A stretch of 64,000 bases of DNA, from the NCBI GenBank assembly GCA_031417395.1, contig JANOVM010000024.1, positions 1,491 to 65,490 of the forward strand, written 5' to 3'. The translations under genes were made by a program, and so were the position numbers. The stretch is from Bacteroidota bacterium (GTDB lineage Bacteria; Bacteroidota; Bacteroidia; AKYH767-A; 2013-40CM-41-45). Positions 39,774 to 54,938 of the stretch are shown here, piece after piece; positions within the stretch are counted from its first letter, which is position 1, and the number at the start of each line of letters is the position of its first letter. The notes below the pieces were generated by a model. That model was not told the origin of the DNA, did not search any database, and saw only the letters and a program-made list of their open reading frames with translations.

Positions 39774-39845
39774 GGCCCGTTCGTCTAGGGGTTAGGACAT
39801 CTCCCTTTCACGGAGGAAACGCGGGTTCGATTCCCGCACGGGCTA
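39774..39845 (+). tRNA. tRNA-Glu (TTC)
   Basis: GGCCCGT/ACGGGCT acceptor stem, anticodon loop CTTTCAC, T-loop GGTTCGATTCC; CCA not encoded. Confidence 0.97.
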
Positions 39846-39880
39846 CTAAACCCTATTTTTAGAAGCATTTAAACCAAGTC

Positions 39881-39969: not shown

Positions 39970-40102
39970 GATAGAAAAGTAAGTATGTTTGTGATAACAA
40001 AATCCAACCAAAAGAAAGAAAGGGAAAAGATACGTGAAAGCCAAATCAACAGAGGGAAATCAAGTATTAGTATTAATAACGGAGTAACAAAAAAAGCAAC
40101 TT

Positions 40103-41179
40103 ATGAGTGTCACTTTAAGAAGGAAAAAAAACAGTGATGGAAGTACTTCTCAGTACTTAGACATCTACCATAACAGTCAAAGAACCTATGAGTTTCTAGC
40201 AGATTGTAAGCTATTCAAGCCGTCCTCGCCACTTGACAGGAAAGATAACCGTGATCGTGTAGAGCTTGCAGAAAGAATCAGAATGAAGCGAGAGCAGCAA
40301 ATTCAGAGCGATGAATATGACATATCACCGGCCTTCAAAATTGGGATTGATTTTATAAAGCTATTCGATAATTACTTGGAACGCTACACTAAAAAAGATA
40401 AACGAATTGTATCTGCATGTTTAAAGCAATTCAAAGATTACATGGTGGAGGAGGGACATAAGAAACTTACTACAAAACAGATCAACGGGAAAGTTGTTAA
40501 TCAATTCAAGGAACACTTAGAAAAAACTCTTAATGGTGAAACTCCTGCGAATTACTTCAAAAAATTTAAACGGGTTTTAAAAACTGCAATGATAGATAAG
40601 AATATTTCAGCATCATTAGCACTTGAAATAAATGACATCAGTATAAAATCTGAAACTGGAATAAAAAAGGATATTCTGACTTATGAGGAAATACAAGATC
40701 TTGCCTCGACACAAATGACAAACAAAGAAGTAAAGCGAGCTTTTCTTTTTTCGTGCTTCACAGGGTTAAGATTTTGTGATATAATTAATCTAAAGTGGAG
40801 GCATGTACAGGGCAAGACTCTGAACCTCGTACAACAAAAAACACAGGTTGCAGTATCAATAAATCTAAATAAGACGGCATTAAACTTATTAGGTGAGAAA
40901 CAGGACGCAAATAAATTTGTTTTCAATTTACCCTCACATACTGCATGTATTAAAGGAATTAAGAAATGGTGTACAAACGCAGGTATCACAAAAAAAATAA
41001 CGTGGCATTGTGCAAGACATTCTTTTGCAACAGGAATTATTTTTTATGGAAGCGATGTAAAAAACGCTAGTGCATTACTCGGACATAAATCACTTGCATA
41101 CACCGATAGATATTTGAGAGTAGTAGATTCATTGAAGGAGAAAGCAGTTGAGAATCTACCGGAATTGAATTTATTATAA
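40103..41179 (+). CDS. Tyrosine recombinase / integrase (Bacteroidota Arm-DNA-bind_5 / SAM-like type)
   Basis: YLDIY N-terminus; FSCFTGLRFCD (R), QKT (K), HCARHSFAT (HxxR), LLGH, TDRY (Y). Confidence 0.97.
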   Translation: MSVTLRRKKNSDGSTSQYLDIYHNSQRTYEFLADCKLFKPSSPLDRKDNRDRVELAERIRMKREQQIQSDEYDISPAFKIGIDFIKLFDNYLERYTKKDKRIVSACLKQFKDYMVEEGHKKLTTKQINGKVVNQFKEHLEKTLNGETPANYFKKFKRVLKTAMIDKNISASLALEINDISIKSETGIKKDILTYEEIQDLASTQMTNKEVKRAFLFSCFTGLRFCDIINLKWRHVQGKTLNLVQQKTQVAVSINLNKTALNLLGEKQDANKFVFNLPSHTACIKGIKKWCTNAGITKKITWHCARHSFATGIIFYGSDVKNASALLGHKSLAYTDRYLRVVDSLKEKAVENLPELNLL

Positions 41180-41190
41180 CCTGTTAAACT

Positions 41191-42078
41191 ATGGCTATGA
41201 AGAAAACAGAAGACAAAACAGACGAGTTAAAAACCCCTGAACAGTGGATGACAACAGAATCACCATCGGAGCTAGAGAAAAGTATTCAAAGTTGCGAAAC
41301 AGCGATGCGAATTATAAATAGAAGTATTGAAATAGCAGGAGGAAAAGGAATACCTATAAGTCAAGGCTATCTTATAGAAAATCAAGCGAGAGTTGATATT
41401 TACTTTATCAATCTTGAGAAAGCATTTCTAACCGGCCTTGAAGATGATAGCATAACTCCAAAGGGTAATTGGTTTAATCAATTCGAAATGATTGCTGTGA
41501 ACGGAATTGATAAAGGGACAGAGAGAAAAAATAGTCCATTTGAAAAAAATGAATTAACGGAATATATCATCAGTAAATTTACTTCACTGAAAAACACAAT
41601 TGCAAGTTGTAGGAAAATCCATACTGAGAACATTAGGCGTAACAAAAACAATGCTCCATTATCGCAGGACAAAAACAATGTATCATATAATCTGATTGAA
41701 TTGAATTATACTCCAGTACAACAGGTAGAAATAATACAATTTTTATTTGATGAACTCAATCAAAAATTGTTTAATACTAGCTATGAGATATTTGTAAGGC
41801 ATTTTATTGAAGGTGAATCAATATTAGAAAAAATAATATGGATTGGAACTGAGCAACAAATTAAAGCGCTATTCAAATGGTTAGATGAAAAACAGATTAT
41901 CATAACTACTGATATAAATATTTTAATCAAGAATCATTTTGTCAATAAAAAGAGAAGGGAATTTAAGTGTAAACAACTTAGTGTTGTTTTGAGCAAAAGC
42001 GATTATAGTTTTGATAATCTGAAAATAATACCTCCTCTTACTAAAAAGTTAGAAAAGTTAGTGCTAACTTTTAACTAA
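41191..42078 (+). CDS. Hypothetical protein with C-terminal RteC-like domain, probable element regulator
   Basis: IIWIGTEQQIKALFKWL resembles the W-x-G-(S/T/N)...L..L motif of RteC-like C-termini; it lies between int and xis. Confidence 0.55.
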   Translation: MAMKKTEDKTDELKTPEQWMTTESPSELEKSIQSCETAMRIINRSIEIAGGKGIPISQGYLIENQARVDIYFINLEKAFLTGLEDDSITPKGNWFNQFEMIAVNGIDKGTERKNSPFEKNELTEYIISKFTSLKNTIASCRKIHTENIRRNKNNAPLSQDKNNVSYNLIELNYTPVQQVEIIQFLFDELNQKLFNTSYEIFVRHFIEGESILEKIIWIGTEQQIKALFKWLDEKQIIITTDINILIKNHFVNKKRREFKCKQLSVVLSKSDYSFDNLKIIPPLTKKLEKLVLTFN

Positions 42079-42144: not shown

Positions 42145-42447
42145 ATGGTGGAAAAAGAAATTTTACAAGAACTCCACAGTATTAAAACAATACTGTCAGA
42201 GCAAAACATAAATAGAAAAGACGTGCTCAATTTTAATGAAGCCGTGAAATTTATTGATGTTTCTTCCTCATATCTGTATAAACTTACATCCTCTGGGAAG
42301 ATACCTCACTACAAGCCACAGGGCAAGAAAATTTTTTTCAGTCGTGTAGAATTGGAAGCATGGCTTTTAACTAACCCCGTAACTTCATCAGATGCAATTG
42401 AAATAAAAGCATCTACTCATGTGGCATTAAATGGTGATAGAAAATGA
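42145..42447 (+). CDS. Excisionase / HTH_17 (MerR-like) DNA-binding protein
   Basis: VLNFNEAVKFIDVSSSYLYKLTS.GKIPHYKPQGKKIFFSR.ELEAWL. Confidence 0.92.
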   Translation: MVEKEILQELHSIKTILSEQNINRKDVLNFNEAVKFIDVSSSYLYKLTSSGKIPHYKPQGKKIFFSRVELEAWLLTNPVTSSDAIEIKASTHVALNGDRK

Positions 42448-42530
42448 ACCCATTTCAAAAAATAAGGGGTGCGGTTTCCCGCGTCCCCTTTTGTCCTAAA
42501 ACGATTACAGGGCTAACTGCAAACGTTTGA
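42444..42530 (+). CDS. 28-aa leader peptide translationally coupled between xis and the rep-like gene
   Basis: MNPFQKIRGAVSRVPFCPKTITGLTANV*. Its ATG overlaps the xis stop (ATGA) and its TGA overlaps the next gene's TTG start (TTGA). Confidence 0.5.
   Translation: MNPFQKIRGAVSRVPFCPKTITGLTANV
42457..42513 (-). ncRNA. Putative counter-transcribed antisense RNA (ctRNA)
   Basis: Minus-strand -7-like AACGTTTG (42520-42527), then AAGGGG-AC-GCGG-GAAA-CCGC-A-CCCCTT-ATTTTTT hairpin and U-tract. Confidence 0.5.
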
Positions 42531-43207
42531 GTAAAGATACTAAGTATTTTACTTTCCCCATTGGAATGTTAACCAATGCACAGGCAGATATATCAAAAGT
42601 CTGTGAGAGCATTATTGATTATTCGTTATTCATGCACGCGAAAAAATTAGAACACGGTACACAGATAAAAAAAATCAAAGAAGCTGCTAATTTCTATGGT
42701 TATACTTTGGGCAATCTAAGGAAAACTATTAATGAAGGCGAAAATATTCTAAGTAAGAACTTCAAAGTAGTTACGAGTATTAACAAAGATACTATTGAAG
42801 ATTTCCGAATGAACCATAAAACACCGTTTGAAATTATAGTCTTTATATCGTTTTGCGCCCTTCGGAGTATCATCGGAAAGAAACCATACTGTAAGCTCGA
42901 AAACAAGTTTCTACTCTCACGGATGGCAGGATTTGAAAAGAGCGTATCAATTCAGGAGCTACCGGGATCAATACGATCTTATGCAAATGAATACCAAATG
43001 CGAAAAATAAAAAAAGAACTTATCAATCATTGGGGACTTAAACACTATTCACGGTTCACCCGTGGGTTTTATGTATCGTTTACAATGCCAAAGGTTGAAC
43101 TAATTTTCCATGCAGAGAAAAAACGAAAAAAATATCTTGAAAAAGAGAAATCAAATGAACAAAAAGAAGCACTCAAAAAAGTCATGTTGCAATTATACGG
43201 ATCGTAA
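42527..43207 (+). CDS. Hypothetical basic protein, putative replication initiator
   Basis: TTG start, K-rich, no recognised motif. The function is inferred from the upstream ctRNA/leader and downstream iteron-like repeats. Confidence 0.5.
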   Translation: MSKDTKYFTFPIGMLTNAQADISKVCESIIDYSLFMHAKKLEHGTQIKKIKEAANFYGYTLGNLRKTINEGENILSKNFKVVTSINKDTIEDFRMNHKTPFEIIVFISFCALRSIIGKKPYCKLENKFLLSRMAGFEKSVSIQELPGSIRSYANEYQMRKIKKELINHWGLKHYSRFTRGFYVSFTMPKVELIFHAEKKRKKYLEKEKSNEQKEALKKVMLQLYGS

Positions 43208-43212
43208 CCATA

Positions 43213-43449
43213 ACACGACCTATAAAAGGAAAAGAAGTGGATTGTAGTAATGAATCAATACTGAGTTGATATTAATTTCAAAAAGTACACGACCTATAAA
43301 AAGATATTGTAGTAAGATACTGTAAACAGAAATTCTAATAAGATACTTTAAAAAGAAAATATAAAAGTGTGTTCTCTTTTTATTTTTTTTTTCAAAAAAA
43401 AGAGAAAATAAAAAAAAACGTCGCGGGTTGTTGTTTGATACTAACCCGC
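43213..43449. other. Putative origin of replication (iterons, AT-rich tract, hairpin)
   Basis: ACACGACCTATAAAA x2 (43213, 43287); ATTGTAGTAA x2 (43241, 43306); TAAGATACT x2 (43313, 43339); poly-T/poly-A tract ~43371-43418; GCGGGTT...AACCCGC hairpin. Confidence 0.55.
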
Positions 43450-43503
43450 TACTCTTAATACCGGAGTTAAAAAAACTCTGTAAATTACAGGTAGAAAACA
43501 GAG

Positions 43504-43833
43504 ATGAAATATAAAGAAGGAAGTAGTGGTAATCCAAACGGCCGGCCAAAAGGATCGAAGAATAAGGTTGGGAGCGATCTTCGAGAAAGAATTATAAATT
43601 TTCTTTCCAATGAATTTGAAAATGTTCAAAACGATTTTCAGAAACTCAAACCCCATGAACGGATTCGTTTGTATTGTGATCTCTTACAATATGGCTTACC
43701 GAAACTTCAAGCAATGACATTAGATGCAGATATAACAAGTAATGAGGAAATAAATCTGCCTAGGCAAGTAATATTCAATAATCCACATTGCACCTGTTCA
43801 GCTTCTGTTTTAAGGGGAGATCAAAAAGAGTAG
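43504..43833 (+). CDS. DUF5681-family protein (terminase small subunit-like N-terminus)
   Basis: KEGSSGNPNGRPKGSKNK signature followed by a helical domain ending in YGLPKL. Confidence 0.75.
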   Translation: MKYKEGSSGNPNGRPKGSKNKVGSDLRERIINFLSNEFENVQNDFQKLKPHERIRLYCDLLQYGLPKLQAMTLDADITSNEEINLPRQVIFNNPHCTCSASVLRGDQKE

Positions 43834-44755: not shown

Positions 44756-45922
44756 ATGAAAAAAATAATTACACTTTTAATTTTACTTTATTCATTTGTG
44801 AATATTGTAAATGCAGATAGTTGGACACAGAAATCTAACATAGGAGGAAGATACGGTGCAGTTGGTTTTTCTATTGGATCAAAAGGATATATCGGTACAG
44901 GATACAATAATAATTTTTTGAAAGATTTTTGGGAGTGGGATCAATCAACAAATGTATGGACACAAAAGGCGGACTTTGGAGGGATTCCTAGAGATGGTGC
45001 GGTTGGTTTTTCTATTGGAGCAAAAGGATATATTGGAGTTGGACATGACAGCTCTTCAAATTATCAAGATTTTTGGGAGTGGGATCAATCAACAAATGTA
45101 TGGACACAAAAGGCGGACTTTGGAGGAGGCATAAGATGGAATCCTAGAGGATTTTCAATAGGAACCAAAGGATATATTGGAACGGGTGAAGATAGCCTTT
45201 ATAGACAAGATTTTTGGGAGTGGGATCAATCAACAAATGTATGGACACAGAAAACCGCCTTTGGAGGGATAGCAAGAAGTGTAGACGTAGCTTTTTCGAT
45301 CGGTACAAAAGGGTATATAGGAACCGGATGGAATGGTGTTACTTGCATTCAGGATTTTTGGGAATGGAATCAATCAACTAATGTATGGACTCAGAAGGCT
45401 GACTTTGGTGGAGGATTAAGGAGAGAGGCCGTTGGTTTTTCAATCGGTACAAAAGGGTATATAGGAACCGGATGGAATGGTGTTATTTATAAACTTGATT
45501 TTTGGGAGTGGGATCAATCAACAAATGTATGGATACAGAAGGCTGACTTTGGTGGGGTAGCTAGAACAAGTGCAGTTGGTTTTTCAATCGGTACAAAAGG
45601 GTATATCGGTACAGGATACAATGTCTTAAATGATTTCTGGGAATGGAATTCAACTACAACAAGTATGAATGAAGTGATAGAACAAAATGAAGTTTCTGTT
45701 TATCCTAATCCAGTAAATGATTTTCTAAATATTCACATTTCAAAAAATAAGTTGAATGAGGAACTTATAATTATTGATATGTCAGGCAAAGAGGTTTACA
45801 AGAAAATGATTAGTGGACTTGATAATAGAATTGATATTTCCAAATTGAGTAATGGAATTTATATTTATCAGTTAAGAAATATTAATGAGAAGTTTCAAGG
45901 AAAATTTTTGATTGAGAAATAA
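44756..45922 (+). CDS. Six-bladed Kelch-like beta-propeller with T9SS type A CTD (element cargo)
   Basis: Six ~48-aa repeats (FSIGTKGYIGTG..DFWEW.QSTNVWTQKADFGG); YPNP..GIY..KFLIEK CTD. Confidence 0.92.
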   Translation: MKKIITLLILLYSFVNIVNADSWTQKSNIGGRYGAVGFSIGSKGYIGTGYNNNFLKDFWEWDQSTNVWTQKADFGGIPRDGAVGFSIGAKGYIGVGHDSSSNYQDFWEWDQSTNVWTQKADFGGGIRWNPRGFSIGTKGYIGTGEDSLYRQDFWEWDQSTNVWTQKTAFGGIARSVDVAFSIGTKGYIGTGWNGVTCIQDFWEWNQSTNVWTQKADFGGGLRREAVGFSIGTKGYIGTGWNGVIYKLDFWEWDQSTNVWIQKADFGGVARTSAVGFSIGTKGYIGTGYNVLNDFWEWNSTTTSMNEVIEQNEVSVYPNPVNDFLNIHISKNKLNEELIIIDMSGKEVYKKMISGLDNRIDISKLSNGIYIYQLRNINEKFQGKFLIEK

Positions 45923-46165
45923 AACTTTAACATTGAAATAAGATTCATTTTTAGTAGTAAGAAAACTAAAATTGGGTTGAATTTGATTTAAACAGTTTAT
46001 TAAGGAATCTATAACTCTAACCTCCGCTTTGATGAATTATGCGAGAGGTATCGCGAGGCCAAGCGTAGAGAAAGGCAGACATAGTTTTGAGACTGAAAAA
46101 TGAATTATGACACCAGTACGAGGGACAAAATAATTAAAGGTTAAAATCAGGGGAAATTGAATCTT

Positions 46166-46187
46166 TTGTTACTCTGTTGTTACTTAT
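46166..46187 (+). repeat. Integrase arm-type sites (right)
   Basis: TTGTTACTctGTTGTTACTTAT, about 60 bp inside attR. Confidence 0.75.
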
Positions 46188-46246
46188 AACCCAGTTTATT
46201 ATTATAATTAATTGATAAATAGTTGATTATGGGCTAGTATTGATAG

Positions 46247-46259
46247 CCGCACGGGCTAC
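46247..46259 (+). repeat. attR core (duplicated tRNA-Glu 3' end)
   Basis: CCGCACGGGCTAC identical to 39834-39846. Confidence 0.93.
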
Positions 46260-46546: not shown

Positions 46547-48046
46547 TTAGTTTTCAGGAAAATAAATATCAAACGTTGCGCCTTTCTTTAACTCGCTTGT
46601 TGCAATGATAATGCCGCTGTGATTCTCAACTATTTTTTTTACGATGGCAAGTCCGATGCCAGTGCCTCCATATACTTCTTTGCCGTGAAGTTTTTGAAAC
46701 ACTTCAAAAATCCGTTCGCTGAAATGAGATTCAAAGCCAATGCCGTTATCTTTGACGGTTATATGGCAATAATCTTTTTCAGGTGAAAGTTTTTCGCTAA
46801 TTAATTTATTGCCTTTTACTATGCCGCTCTTTATAATGATGTGTGAGTGTATGTCGGGCTGTGAAAATTTAAGGGCATTGCTTATAAGGTTGTACATAAG
46901 CTGGCGAAACTGAAAAGCGATTATGTTGGCAGTGCCGAGTTCAGTGGCTTCGATGGTGGCGTGCTTTTCCTGGATGGTATCCTTTAGTTCGGATTTTACT
47001 TCTTCTACAATTATTTTTAGGTCTGTCTTTTCAAACTTGAGCTCAGTAGTGGCAATGCGGGAGAAGGCAAGTAAATCGTCAATGAGTTGTTGCATTCTTC
47101 CGGCTGCTAATTGCATCCGCTGAAAATTATATTTGCCATTGTCAGTCAGCGTTTCTTTTTCCAATAAGATAGTTGCAAAGGTTTGTATTTTGCGCAATGG
47201 CTCCTGCAAATCATGACTCGATATATAGGTGAATGCAAGCAATTCTTTATTAGCAATAATTAACTCAGCGGCACGTTTTCCCTTCTCTTCGTTTTGGAAG
47301 GCAAGTTCTTTGTTAGCTATGATTAATTCTGCTGCCCGTTTTTCTTTTTCTTCGTTTTGAAAAGCAAGTTCTTTGTTGGCAATGCCTAACTCTGCCGCTC
47401 TTTTTTCTTTTTCCTCGTTTTGAAAGGCAAGTTCTTTATTGGCAATTCCCAGCTCTGCTGCCCGTTTTTCTTTTTCTTCGTTTTGAAAGGCAAGTTCTTT
47501 GTTGGCAATGATTAATTCTTCTGCCCGTTTTTCTTTCTCCTTGTTTTGAAAGATAAGTTCTTTGTTGGCAATGCCCAGCTCTGCTGCACGCTTTTCTTTC
47601 TCCGCATTTTGAAAGATAAGTTCTTTGTTGGCAATGCCCAGTTCTGCTGCACGCTTTTCTTTCTCTATGTTTTGAAAAACAAGTTCTTTATTGGCAATGC
47701 TTAACTCTGCTGCCCGCTTCCCTTTTTCTTCGTCTTCGAAGACAAGTTCTTTGTTGGCAATGCCTAGCTCTGCGGCACGTTTTCCCTTTTCTTCATCCTG
47801 AAAGGCAAGTTCTATGTTGGCAATGCCCAACTCTGCTGCACGTTTTCCCTTTTCCTCGTCCTGAAAGGCAAGCTCTATGTTGGCAATGCCTAACTCAGCT
47901 GCTCGTTTCACTTTCTCTTCTTTCTGAAAGACAAGTTCTTTGCGGGCAATAATTAACTCTGCTAAAAGCTTTTCATATTCTTCTTTTTGAAAAGCAAGTT
48001 CTGCGCGAACAATAGTTACCTCATCTGTATTCTTTGTTTTAATCAT
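46547..48046 (-). CDS. Cytoplasmic histidine kinase (phytochrome/Cph1-like HisKA-HATPase) whose N-terminal half is a 21-aa coiled-coil repeat array
   Basis: SHDLQEPLRK H-box, NLISNALKF, DNGIGF, GTGIGLAI. Confidence 0.92.
   Translation of the reverse strand: MIKTKNTDEVTIVRAELAFQKEEYEKLLAELIIARKELVFQKEEKVKRAAELGIANIELAFQDEEKGKRAAELGIANIELAFQDEEKGKRAAELGIANKELVFEDEEKGKRAAELSIANKELVFQNIEKEKRAAELGIANKELIFQNAEKEKRAAELGIANKELIFQNKEKEKRAEELIIANKELAFQNEEKEKRAAELGIANKELAFQNEEKEKRAAELGIANKELAFQNEEKEKRAAELIIANKELAFQNEEKGKRAAELIIANKELLAFTYISSHDLQEPLRKIQTFATILLEKETLTDNGKYNFQRMQLAAGRMQQLIDDLLAFSRIATTELKFEKTDLKIIVEEVKSELKDTIQEKHATIEATELGTANIIAFQFRQLMYNLISNALKFSQPDIHSHIIIKSGIVKGNKLISEKLSPEKDYCHITVKDNGIGFESHFSERIFEVFQKLHGKEVYGGTGIGLAIVKKIVENHSGIIIATSELKKGATFDIYFPEN
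47261..48016 (-). repeat. 12 tandem 63-bp coding repeats (consensus xIANKELAFQNEEKEKRAAEL)
   Basis: Counted directly in the protein and the DNA. Confidence 0.95.
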
Positions 48047-53295: not shown

Positions 53296-53646
53296 ATGGA
53301 AAAAGACAACAAAAATTGGTATGGAATGAGTGATTCTGTCGTTCTGGAAGTATTTGGGAATTTCATTCAACAAAATCGTTTGATGCAGAATAAAACTCAG
53401 CAGGAGGTATCGAAAGCTGCAGGAATCAATAGGTCTACCATGGTCCAAATCGAAAATGGTGGAGGTGGAACCTTGCGTTCCTTTATTCAGATATTAAGAG
53501 CACTGGAGCAATTGCATTTGCTAAAACATTTTGAAGTGGTGCAGCAGATTAGTCCGCTGCAATTAGCAAAGATGGAAATGAATAAAAGAAAAAGAGCAAG
53601 CAGCAAAAAGGGGAGTGCTAACGATAAACCATCAAGCGACTGGTAA
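53296..53646 (+). CDS. hipB: XRE-family HTH antitoxin (HipB-like)
   Basis: TQQEVSKAAGINRSTMVQIENG HTH; stop overlaps the hipA start. Confidence 0.85.
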   Translation: MEKDNKNWYGMSDSVVLEVFGNFIQQNRLMQNKTQQEVSKAAGINRSTMVQIENGGGGTLRSFIQILRALEQLHLLKHFEVVQQISPLQLAKMEMNKRKRASSKKGSANDKPSSDW

Positions 53647-54938
53647 TGATTACTACTGCTTTCATCAATTTATGGAATAAGCGTGTTGGAGCAATTGCAT
53701 GGGATAGAAATACCGGTATTTCTTCGTTTGAATATGCTCCTTCATTTCTATCAAACAATTGGGATATTGCTCCTTTGAAAATGCCTATTGCTGGAGCTGA
53801 AAAAAGAATTTTTTCTTTTCGGGAATTAAGAGACAGTACAACGTTTAAGGGTTTACCGGGATTGCTTGCCGATGTATTGCCGGATAAATACGGCAATGCA
53901 ATGATTAATGCCTGGCTATCAAAAAATGGAAGGCCTGCTGATAGTCTTAACCCCGTCGAACTACTTTGCTTTATAGGTAAGCGGGGAATGGGTGCTTTAG
54001 AATTCGAGCCTGTAGAGCCATCTGTTAAAAATTCAGCTTCAAAAATTGAGCTGGATGGTTTGGTTCATATAGCCGGTGAAATTCTTGCAGGCCGACAAGA
54101 TTTTAATACAAACTTTTCTGATGCCGATGAAAACGCTCTGCTTGATATTTTAAAAATCGGTACCTCTGCCGGAGGCGCAAGGGCAAAAGCAATCATAACA
54201 TACAATACCGCTACAAAGGAAATTCGATCGGGACAAGCAGATGCTCCCAAAGGATTCTCGCATTGGCTTATTAAATTTGATGGTGTTGCAGATCAGCAAT
54301 TAGGTACAACGAACGGTTACGGCAGGGTTGAAATGGCATATTCCCTAATGGCTAAGGAAGCACAAATTGAAATGTCAGAGTGCATGCTTCTTGAAGAAAA
54401 TAACAGAGCTCATTTTATGACCAAACGTTTTGACAGGGAGCATGGTATTGGTAAACTTCATGTACAGAGCTTTTGTGCTATTGCGCATTATGATTTCAAT
54501 GATGTTAGTTCATATAGCTATGAACAATTGTTTGAAACCATGAGAATGATCCATCTCCCTTATACCGATGCCGAACAATTATACAGAAGAATGGTATTTA
54601 ATGTAATGGCCAGAAATTGTGACGATCACACCAAGAATTTTGCTTTCAAAATGGACAAAACGGGCAAGTGGAGGTTAGCGCCTGCATTTGATGTTTGTCA
54701 TTCGTATCGTCCGGGAAGCGCATGGGTAAGTCAGCAGTCTTTAAGCATTAATAACAAACGGCAGGGTATAAGCCGAGAAGATTTACTCTCTGTAGCAAAA
54801 AAAATGAATATAAAGAAAGCATCTGCAATAATTGATCAGGTAAGGGAAGCTGTTAATAAATGGAGTTATTTTGCTTCTCTTACCCATGTGAAGGAGGATT
54901 TAAAAAAAGCAGTGGAAAAAACACTTTTACTTTTATAA
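53646..54938 (+). CDS. hipA: HipA-family Ser/Thr kinase toxin
   Basis: HipA N-terminal domain (LPDKYG); SAGGARAK P-loop; WLIKFD; KRFDR; NCDDHTKNF; LAPAFD. Confidence 0.95.
   Translation: MITTAFINLWNKRVGAIAWDRNTGISSFEYAPSFLSNNWDIAPLKMPIAGAEKRIFSFRELRDSTTFKGLPGLLADVLPDKYGNAMINAWLSKNGRPADSLNPVELLCFIGKRGMGALEFEPVEPSVKNSASKIELDGLVHIAGEILAGRQDFNTNFSDADENALLDILKIGTSAGGARAKAIITYNTATKEIRSGQADAPKGFSHWLIKFDGVADQQLGTTNGYGRVEMAYSLMAKEAQIEMSECMLLEENNRAHFMTKRFDREHGIGKLHVQSFCAIAHYDFNDVSSYSYEQLFETMRMIHLPYTDAEQLYRRMVFNVMARNCDDHTKNFAFKMDKTGKWRLAPAFDVCHSYRPGSAWVSQQSLSINNKRQGISREDLLSVAKKMNIKKASAIIDQVREAVNKWSYFASLTHVKEDLKKAVEKTLLLL

Follow-up and report, generated by a model that had tools for sequence, protein, structure and literature searches.

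A probable portable control cassette with a predicted counter-transcribed RNA between xis and a replication-type gene in a small integrated Bacteroidota element

Our analysis of a 64,000-nt stretch of Bacteroidota DNA (the window) suggests that the 87-base xis-rep stretch of a small integrated element is probably a portable control cassette, in which a predicted antisense RNA of 71 nt would block the translation of rep. The sequence feature is real and widespread, and it probably reflects a regulatory antisense RNA, judging from the comparison of related loci. An earlier sequence-only reading of this DNA had proposed that a replication gene is preceded by a coupled ORF and an antisense RNA. 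The core of that idea is well supported comparatively; the promoter and the RNA length that it proposed did not stand, and the placement of the RNA differs from that of CopA.

The cassette lies in a 6.4-kb element that is integrated at a tRNA-Glu(TTC) gene (39774 to 39846, plus strand) and bounded by a 13-bp att repeat, with attL formed by the last 13 nt of the tRNA gene (39834 to 39846) and attR (46247 to 46259, plus strand) by a direct repeat of its 3' end. No integrase followed the tRNA-Glu end in any of the five same-genus loci examined (0.7 to 1.5 kb each). After the tRNA gene, all on the plus strand, come a tyrosine integrase (40103 to 41179; Pfam Phage_integrase, Phage_int_SAM_5 and Arm-DNA-bind_5), a 295-aa ORF with no family match (41191 to 42078), an xis-like HTH_17 protein (42145 to 42447; PF12728, E 7.8e-12; TIGR01764), the 28-codon ORF, the 226-aa ORF, a DUF5681 protein (43504 to 43833; PF18932, E 1.4e-7), which we take to resemble small terminases, and two cargo genes. 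The slot of the 295-aa ORF is occupied by an RteC-like gene in G009, a genome of the same genus. Phage-inducible chromosomal islands are under 15 kb in size, and the element described here is likewise att-flanked and carries int, xis, rep and a candidate ori. It also shares with these islands the order int, xis, rep, ori, terS-like gene and cargo (excerpts of PMC6092414) but differs in having no primase or divergent repressor and no known helper phage. The word 'Bacteroidetes' does not occur in PMC6092414, and the regulators treated in its excerpts are proteins.

Several further features of the window were recorded. Its T9SS-type genes, together with the named relatives of its genes, point to a Bacteroidota origin. 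A 36-nt inverted repeat (75% complementary; 40067 to 40102 and 46154 to 46189) lies near both ends of the element and possibly represents integrase arm-type sites. One cargo gene (44756 to 45922) encodes a Kelch-repeat protein with a T9SS sorting domain, and similar sequence occurs on other contigs of the genome. A histidine-kinase-like ORF (46547 to 48046, minus strand) with about 12 tandem 21-aa repeats (63-nt period) is adjoined by several receiver-domain-like ORFs, all assigned by eye, and an HTH_3 gene overlaps a HipA-like kinase gene at 53296 to 54938 as a HipBA-type toxin-antitoxin pair.

The gene that follows the cassette encodes a 226-aa winged-helix protein, likely a replication initiator, from a TTG start (42527 to 43207, plus strand). 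This weak start had been noted earlier and is supported by our data, given that the conserved family residues Y7 and P11 precede the internal Met14; the database call starts at Met14 and would lose these nearly invariant residues. The protein belongs to no Pfam or NCBIfam family and had no match in plasmids or phages, and its similarity to a phage 'replication initiator' was weak (E 9e-3). Among 50% cluster representatives it has 697 relatives, one of which bears the UniRef name 'Initiator Replication protein'. Its predicted model (pLDDT 93) gave winged-helix matches at residues 97 to 186 (best Z 7.9), of a generic winged helix, and a Foldseek comparison with the PDB returned E values of 0.12 or more, with weak initiator matches. 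By sequence, neither rep profile (winged-helix or Rep_trans) matched solved structures at E below 0.3. Just downstream lies an iteron-like direct-repeat tract that is a candidate origin (43211 to 43350, plus strand; a 13-mer at 43215 and 43289, an 8-mer three times), and repeats of at least 11 nt are present behind rep in 43 of 53 family loci, compared to 2 of 53 control stretches inside rep. In G009 the same slot is held by a rolling-circle-type initiator, and at locus L059 a BT4734-like N-terminal domain is fused to a winged-helix rep-like domain in a protein of 555 aa that begins 4 nt after the xis stop and is apparently the same protein as P0051. From this circumstantial evidence we infer an initiator function for the 226-aa protein. 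A separate hairpin inside the gene (43047 to 43067) is terminator-like on both strands.

A leader ORF of 28 codons (42444 to 42530, plus strand) bridges xis and rep with a 4-nt overlap at each end, namely, an ATGA overlap with the xis stop (42447) and a TTGA overlap with the TTG start at 42527, all as the sequence-only reading had described. In related loci the coupling geometry is kept, and the peptide is not conserved beyond close relatives. Our survey covered the winged-helix family (family A; 137 loci including the window, forming 101 clusters at 80% identity), of which 64 loci had a complete rep start and an xis no more than 1.5 kb away, and the Rep_trans family (48 loci, 39 of them usable and 32 after dereplication), for a total of 96 loci tested; 13 family loci lie in IMG/VR contigs. 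A start codon is found near the xis stop in 87 of the 96 loci, with the exact 4-nt overlap in 25 of these, and the ORF after xis also ends at the rep start in 29. This ORF ranges from 8 to several hundred codons and varies widely in sequence. Double-coupled leaders occur in 6 of the 12 loci with 55- to 150-nt gaps, compared to 1.55 expected, and in 4 of 10 versus 1.07 expected when the window and G009 are left out (P of about 0.005, a value that overstates the case because the loci are related and not independent). About ten loci have no leader, and rep directly follows xis. A type I toxin-antitoxin reading of the leader was rejected, as inspection by eye revealed no hydrophobic stretch in it. 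Longer ORFs between xis and rep (L020:3453-3995, L037:3447-3995, L058:2429-2965 and L044:3700-3996) form recurring unnamed families of about 100 aa and 160 to 190 aa; none of the 10 such sequences searched reached the Pfam cutoff, and one had weak HTH matches.

On the opposite strand, the predicted counter-transcribed RNA is about 71 nt long (42527 to 42457) and folds into two hairpins (-25.6 kcal/mol, z -3.16). An RNA of about 55 to 60 nt had been suggested earlier; we predict a longer one because a better promoter box sits at 42539 to 42532, and the 5' hairpin had been missed. This 5' hairpin (42500 to 42527, minus strand) has a 6-nt loop starting with UUAG, a YUNR pattern, and is stronger in antisense (-8.5 kcal/mol, z -4.3) than in sense (-5.1). 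Its stem is preserved despite a loop change in one sediment contig, and its complement in the mRNA pairs over the rep initiation region (42500 to 42527), including the first base of the TTG. After a linker of 9 nt follows an intrinsic terminator, composed of a hairpin with a GAAA loop and a U-tract (42457 to 42490, minus strand), which confirms the hairpin reported in the sequence-only reading (z -3.1 to -3.4). That reading had the RNA cover the leader. The RNA predicted here runs from the rep start codon to a point about 13 nt past the leader ATG; it is contained in the coding part of the leader and borders on the start of rep, whereas CopA covers the leader start. A search of Rfam at the junction gave nothing at the gathering score (the best candidate was Moco, with 23 bits versus 36 needed), and on 14 related loci Rfam returned tRNA and tmRNA only.

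The GAAA hairpin also reads as a terminator on the plus strand, a property that had gone unremarked, and it is slightly more stable in sense than in antisense (-14.5 versus -13.6). Apart from this target hairpin, no terminator-like site was called in sense ahead of rep. The G+C hairpin could then be mainly a sense-strand attenuator after xis, and read-through into rep would be set either by translation of the leader or, in the manner of pT181, by the antisense RNA. Plus-strand terminators are mildly enriched at xis junctions (13/96 versus 13/288), and the cassette's other partner is a Rep_trans initiator, as in pT181 RNAI-repC, where the counter-transcript also lies in the leader and attenuation is used (excerpts of PMC5703833). 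We consider this explanation unlikely, given that in sense the U-tract comprises only 4 U before a G and is interrupted in one low-depth sediment contig (42490 T to A, which may be an error) and that minus-strand terminators are four times as common (51/96). Moreover, the leader of pT181 is not translated, and the attenuator that its RNA induces is located beyond the antisense target (PMC5703833, same excerpts), whereas here the hairpin is the RNA's own terminator.

For the antisense promoter, a -7-like box, AACGTTTG, had been proposed, and this candidate was rejected. Sequences that differ from TAnnTTTG by one mismatch occur at 1.0% of the window's positions on each strand, so the match is at chance level, and it decays in relatives, with two mismatches at this position in G009 and in one sediment contig. 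AAnnTTTG, a variant of the same box, is depleted upstream of this genome's genes (148 versus 232 expected; 0.64), and AACGTTTG forms the first eight bases of the predicted 71-nt RNA. The likely -7 box is TATCTTTA (42532 to 42539, minus strand), inside rep codons 2 to 5; G009 and three sediment contigs have the perfect TATCTTTG at this place. The sediment comparison, in which four runs were set against positions 42300 to 42700, was informative for four contigs, which come from two samples of a single study. The contig that continues into the same rep carries T42532C, which creates a perfect minus-strand TATCTTTG, at a depth of 2.6 that makes it weak when taken alone. The other three retain parts of the cassette and then diverge: in two, a perfect box at the same offset is followed by the start of a different gene, and the third ends inside the box and has a broken AACGTTTG. 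Across 1,449 windows upstream of genes in this genome, TAnnTTTG was enriched 2.4-fold and TAnnTTTA 1.26-fold (421 versus 334), with TATCTTTA itself found 29 times versus 15. The window's box carries a G-to-A mismatch, has no TTTG -33 element at 19 to 21 nt and ranks third in 42300 to 42750 under the family matrix, where two sites inside rep score higher. Given that the -7 box occupies -12 to -5 relative to the transcription start (excerpts of PMC9723704), the RNA start was placed at about 42527, and we infer that the predicted promoter at 42539 to 42532 is of the housekeeping-sigma type.

The portability of the cassette is suggested by its copy in G009, which is 96% identical to that of the window. 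The xis to which it is joined there by an ATGA overlap is a different one that shares just 36% identity over 45 aa with the window's. The G009 leader has 34 codons and extends over the ATG of a gene for a 429-aa protein. This protein has a Rep_trans fold (4cij and 4cwe, E about 1e-6) and is no relative of the 226-aa protein in the window; of its 17 aligned relatives, two match Phage_CRI and one matches Rep_trans. A 1-nt difference turns the 34-codon leader of G009 into the 28 codons of the window, and the similarity between the two loci stops right after the box. Behind rep, the window contains a remnant of the G009-type Rep_trans C-terminal tail (43398 to 43499, plus strand; 34 codons, 65% identity to residues 394 to 427, E 3.6e-4), which points to a swap of the rep cassette. 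In the likely history, rep would have been replaced behind a retained cassette. Close copies are few: there was one strong match (G009) and four weak ones in 146 genomes of the order, no copy besides the window in 401 genomes of the phylum, and matches at chance level in phages and plasmids. In IMG/VR, the cassette pattern matched 13 times, always in unrelated coding sequence, and a longer pattern did not match. The Hymenobacter plasmid pHsw3 encodes a distant Rep_trans-type relative (20%), upstream of which no such cassette was seen by eye. At the other end of the G009 element (L159:11266-15482), restriction-endonuclease-like and HerA-like ATPase ORFs were noted by eye and are possibly defence genes.

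A swap of this kind could also have left the window's cassette as a decayed or accidental leftover, with the promoter weak or dead and the TTGA overlap a by-product of the junction. Compared to G009 and the sediment contigs, the box is imperfect only in the window, the G009 similarity ends just behind it while the tail of the old rep remains, and the single-base difference has shifted the leader length. Set against these points are the mild enrichment of TAnnTTTA and of TATCTTTA upstream of this genome's genes, the perfect box in the contig that runs into the same rep (depth 2.6) and the presence of the 28-codon stop ahead of the other rep type in two contigs. We regard decay as very improbable.

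The wider survey bears on where the RNA would act. A perfect minus-strand box is present at the xis junction of 36 of the 96 loci and a minus-strand terminator at that of 51. The two occur together, correctly ordered, in 24, compared to 5/288 random windows, 0/96 on the plus strand, 5/322 other codirectional junctions of the same loci and 1/400 host junctions (sampled from 1,793). The window itself is not one of the 24. The strict pair is missing from 72 loci, and 60 lack it even when two relaxed boxes are allowed; the 36 that then qualify have predicted RNAs of 36 to 117 nt (median near 57). In the 64 family A loci, 27 perfect boxes lie 0 to 100 nt past the xis stop, compared to about 2 to 3 per 50 nt in other parts, and the boxes do not peak where rep starts; the antisense signal is tied to xis rather than to rep. 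A codon test ruled out that the box stems from a protein motif, though 26 of 32 boxes share one frame: Lys-Asp pairs in codons 8 to 40 of the ORF that follows xis are spelled with exactly the letters of the box in 15 of 26 cases, compared to 3 of 129 elsewhere, indicating that these letters are constrained at the DNA level. Separately, family A shows a second, smaller minus-strand box peak, with bins of 8 and 7, at 500 to 550 nt ahead of the xis stop, accompanied by plus-strand boxes at -450 to -350; together they perhaps mark a divergent promoter pair upstream of xis.

The 5' end of the RNA falls within 25 nt of the rep start at only 5 of the 36 loci, the window among them, so the family as a whole does not follow a rule of direct action on rep. 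In 20 of the 36, the ORF after xis has its start covered by the RNA, and in relatives with a longer first ORF the RNA more likely blocks the start of that ORF, tap-like. One could extend this to the window and propose that the RNA is real but acts upstream, either by preventing initiation of the ORF behind xis, in strict tap logic, or by destabilizing the xis-leader mRNA, for which lambda OOP is a precedent, so that rep is affected indirectly. Such a role fits the anchoring to the xis stop, as well as the 19 of 36 loci in which the start codon of the ORF after xis is inside the RNA's terminator hairpin and the 11 more in which the RNA ends at most 20 nt downstream of that codon. In the window, however, the RNA is predicted to start at the first codon of rep and to stop about 13 nt past the leader ATG, and we judge this alternative to be quite unlikely here.

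We favor a model in which the RNA acts directly on rep. A minus-strand RNA would start at about 42527 from the promoter at 42539 to 42532 and be stopped by the hairpin at about 42457. The weak TTG start of rep likely depends on ribosomes that arrive through the overlapping leader: ribosomes finishing xis would reinitiate on the leader, melt the mRNA hairpin at 42500 to 42527 and reinitiate at the TTG. The RNA, likely via its YUNR-type 5' loop, would pair with the mRNA hairpin 11 to 16 nt before the TTG and prevent this reinitiation, and the outcome would be low rep expression while the element is integrated and a limited copy number after excision. Given that the element is integrated, as its att repeats indicate, silencing of rep would be the first job of such a switch and is no less likely to be its role than the control of copy number known from plasmids. 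According to excerpts of two papers, Bacteroidota scarcely use Shine-Dalgarno pairing, even at overlaps (PMC6728339), and initiation is tuned by structure near the start codon instead (PMC6847099 and PMC6728339). G-rich runs before the ORF after xis were accordingly rejected as Shine-Dalgarno sites and are read as terminator arms, because Bacteroidetes do not use such sites (excerpts of PMC6728339).

In its geometry the cassette is closest to pMV158 RNAII, and it likely works by antisense control of that type combined with the coupled leader. In copG-RNAII-repB, a small DNA-binding gene is followed by a short counter-transcript whose promoter lies inside the 5' end of rep and which ends in an intrinsic terminator and is complementary to the sequence just ahead of the initiation signals of rep (PMC4485353 and PMC5703833, both in excerpts); the predicted RNA at 42527 to 42457 shares each of these properties. 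The differences are that RNAII has 48 nt and one hairpin, compared to 71 nt and two hairpins here, and that the window has a leader ORF overlapping at both ends. In place of CopG and Rep_2 on a rolling-circle plasmid, we found an HTH_17 xis and a winged-helix protein on an integrated Bacteroidota element, and the initiators are unrelated.

The sequence-only reading had likened the locus to R1 CopA/tap and IncI RepY/RepZ. R1 CopA/tap-repA and IncI2 repR-repA do share a short leader ORF overlapping the rep start and an antisense RNA in the leader region (excerpts of PMC8053102). In R1, however, CopA blocks translation of the leader, whereas the RNA predicted here lies within the leader's coding part and abuts rep, and the window's leader is itself coupled to xis, unlike in R1 or IncI2. 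No Rfam, Pfam, NCBIfam or plasmid match indicated homology to CopA RNA or IncFII RepA. With the Inc RNA-repY-repZ system of IncI1 and IncB, the cassette has in common a 6-nt target loop and a hairpin over the rep start that leader translation would open. It differs in having no conserved pseudoknot partner, given that the only candidate in the window and G009 is a 6-of-7 match with 3 Watson-Crick pairs at 42549 that is absent in G009, and in belonging to a host group that scarcely uses Shine-Dalgarno pairing (PMC6728339, excerpts). The cassette is not a member of the CopA/tap or IncI families.

Antisense control of replication initiators is well known in plasmids of Proteobacteria and Firmicutes. 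For integrated elements of Bacteroidota, Rfam and literature listings that covered few subscription journals contained no description of such an RNA class. We propose, as a possibility somewhat short of even, that an undescribed class of 40- to 70-nt counter-transcribed RNAs exists in small, integrated, satellite-like Bacteroidota elements. These RNAs would be anchored to the xis stop, be portable between unrelated theta-type and rolling-circle initiators and gate coupled translation (xis, variable ORF, rep) without Shine-Dalgarno pairing, as a dormancy and incompatibility switch that replaces a protein repressor. The presence of one cassette ahead of two unrelated initiators amounts to a natural swap experiment. 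If the proposal is correct, such elements would offer a compact system in which to study antisense action and the coupling of translation in bacteria without Shine-Dalgarno initiation, Bacteroidota vectors might gain a copy-number part, and the switch would explain how small islands without an evident repressor stay quiet in the chromosome.
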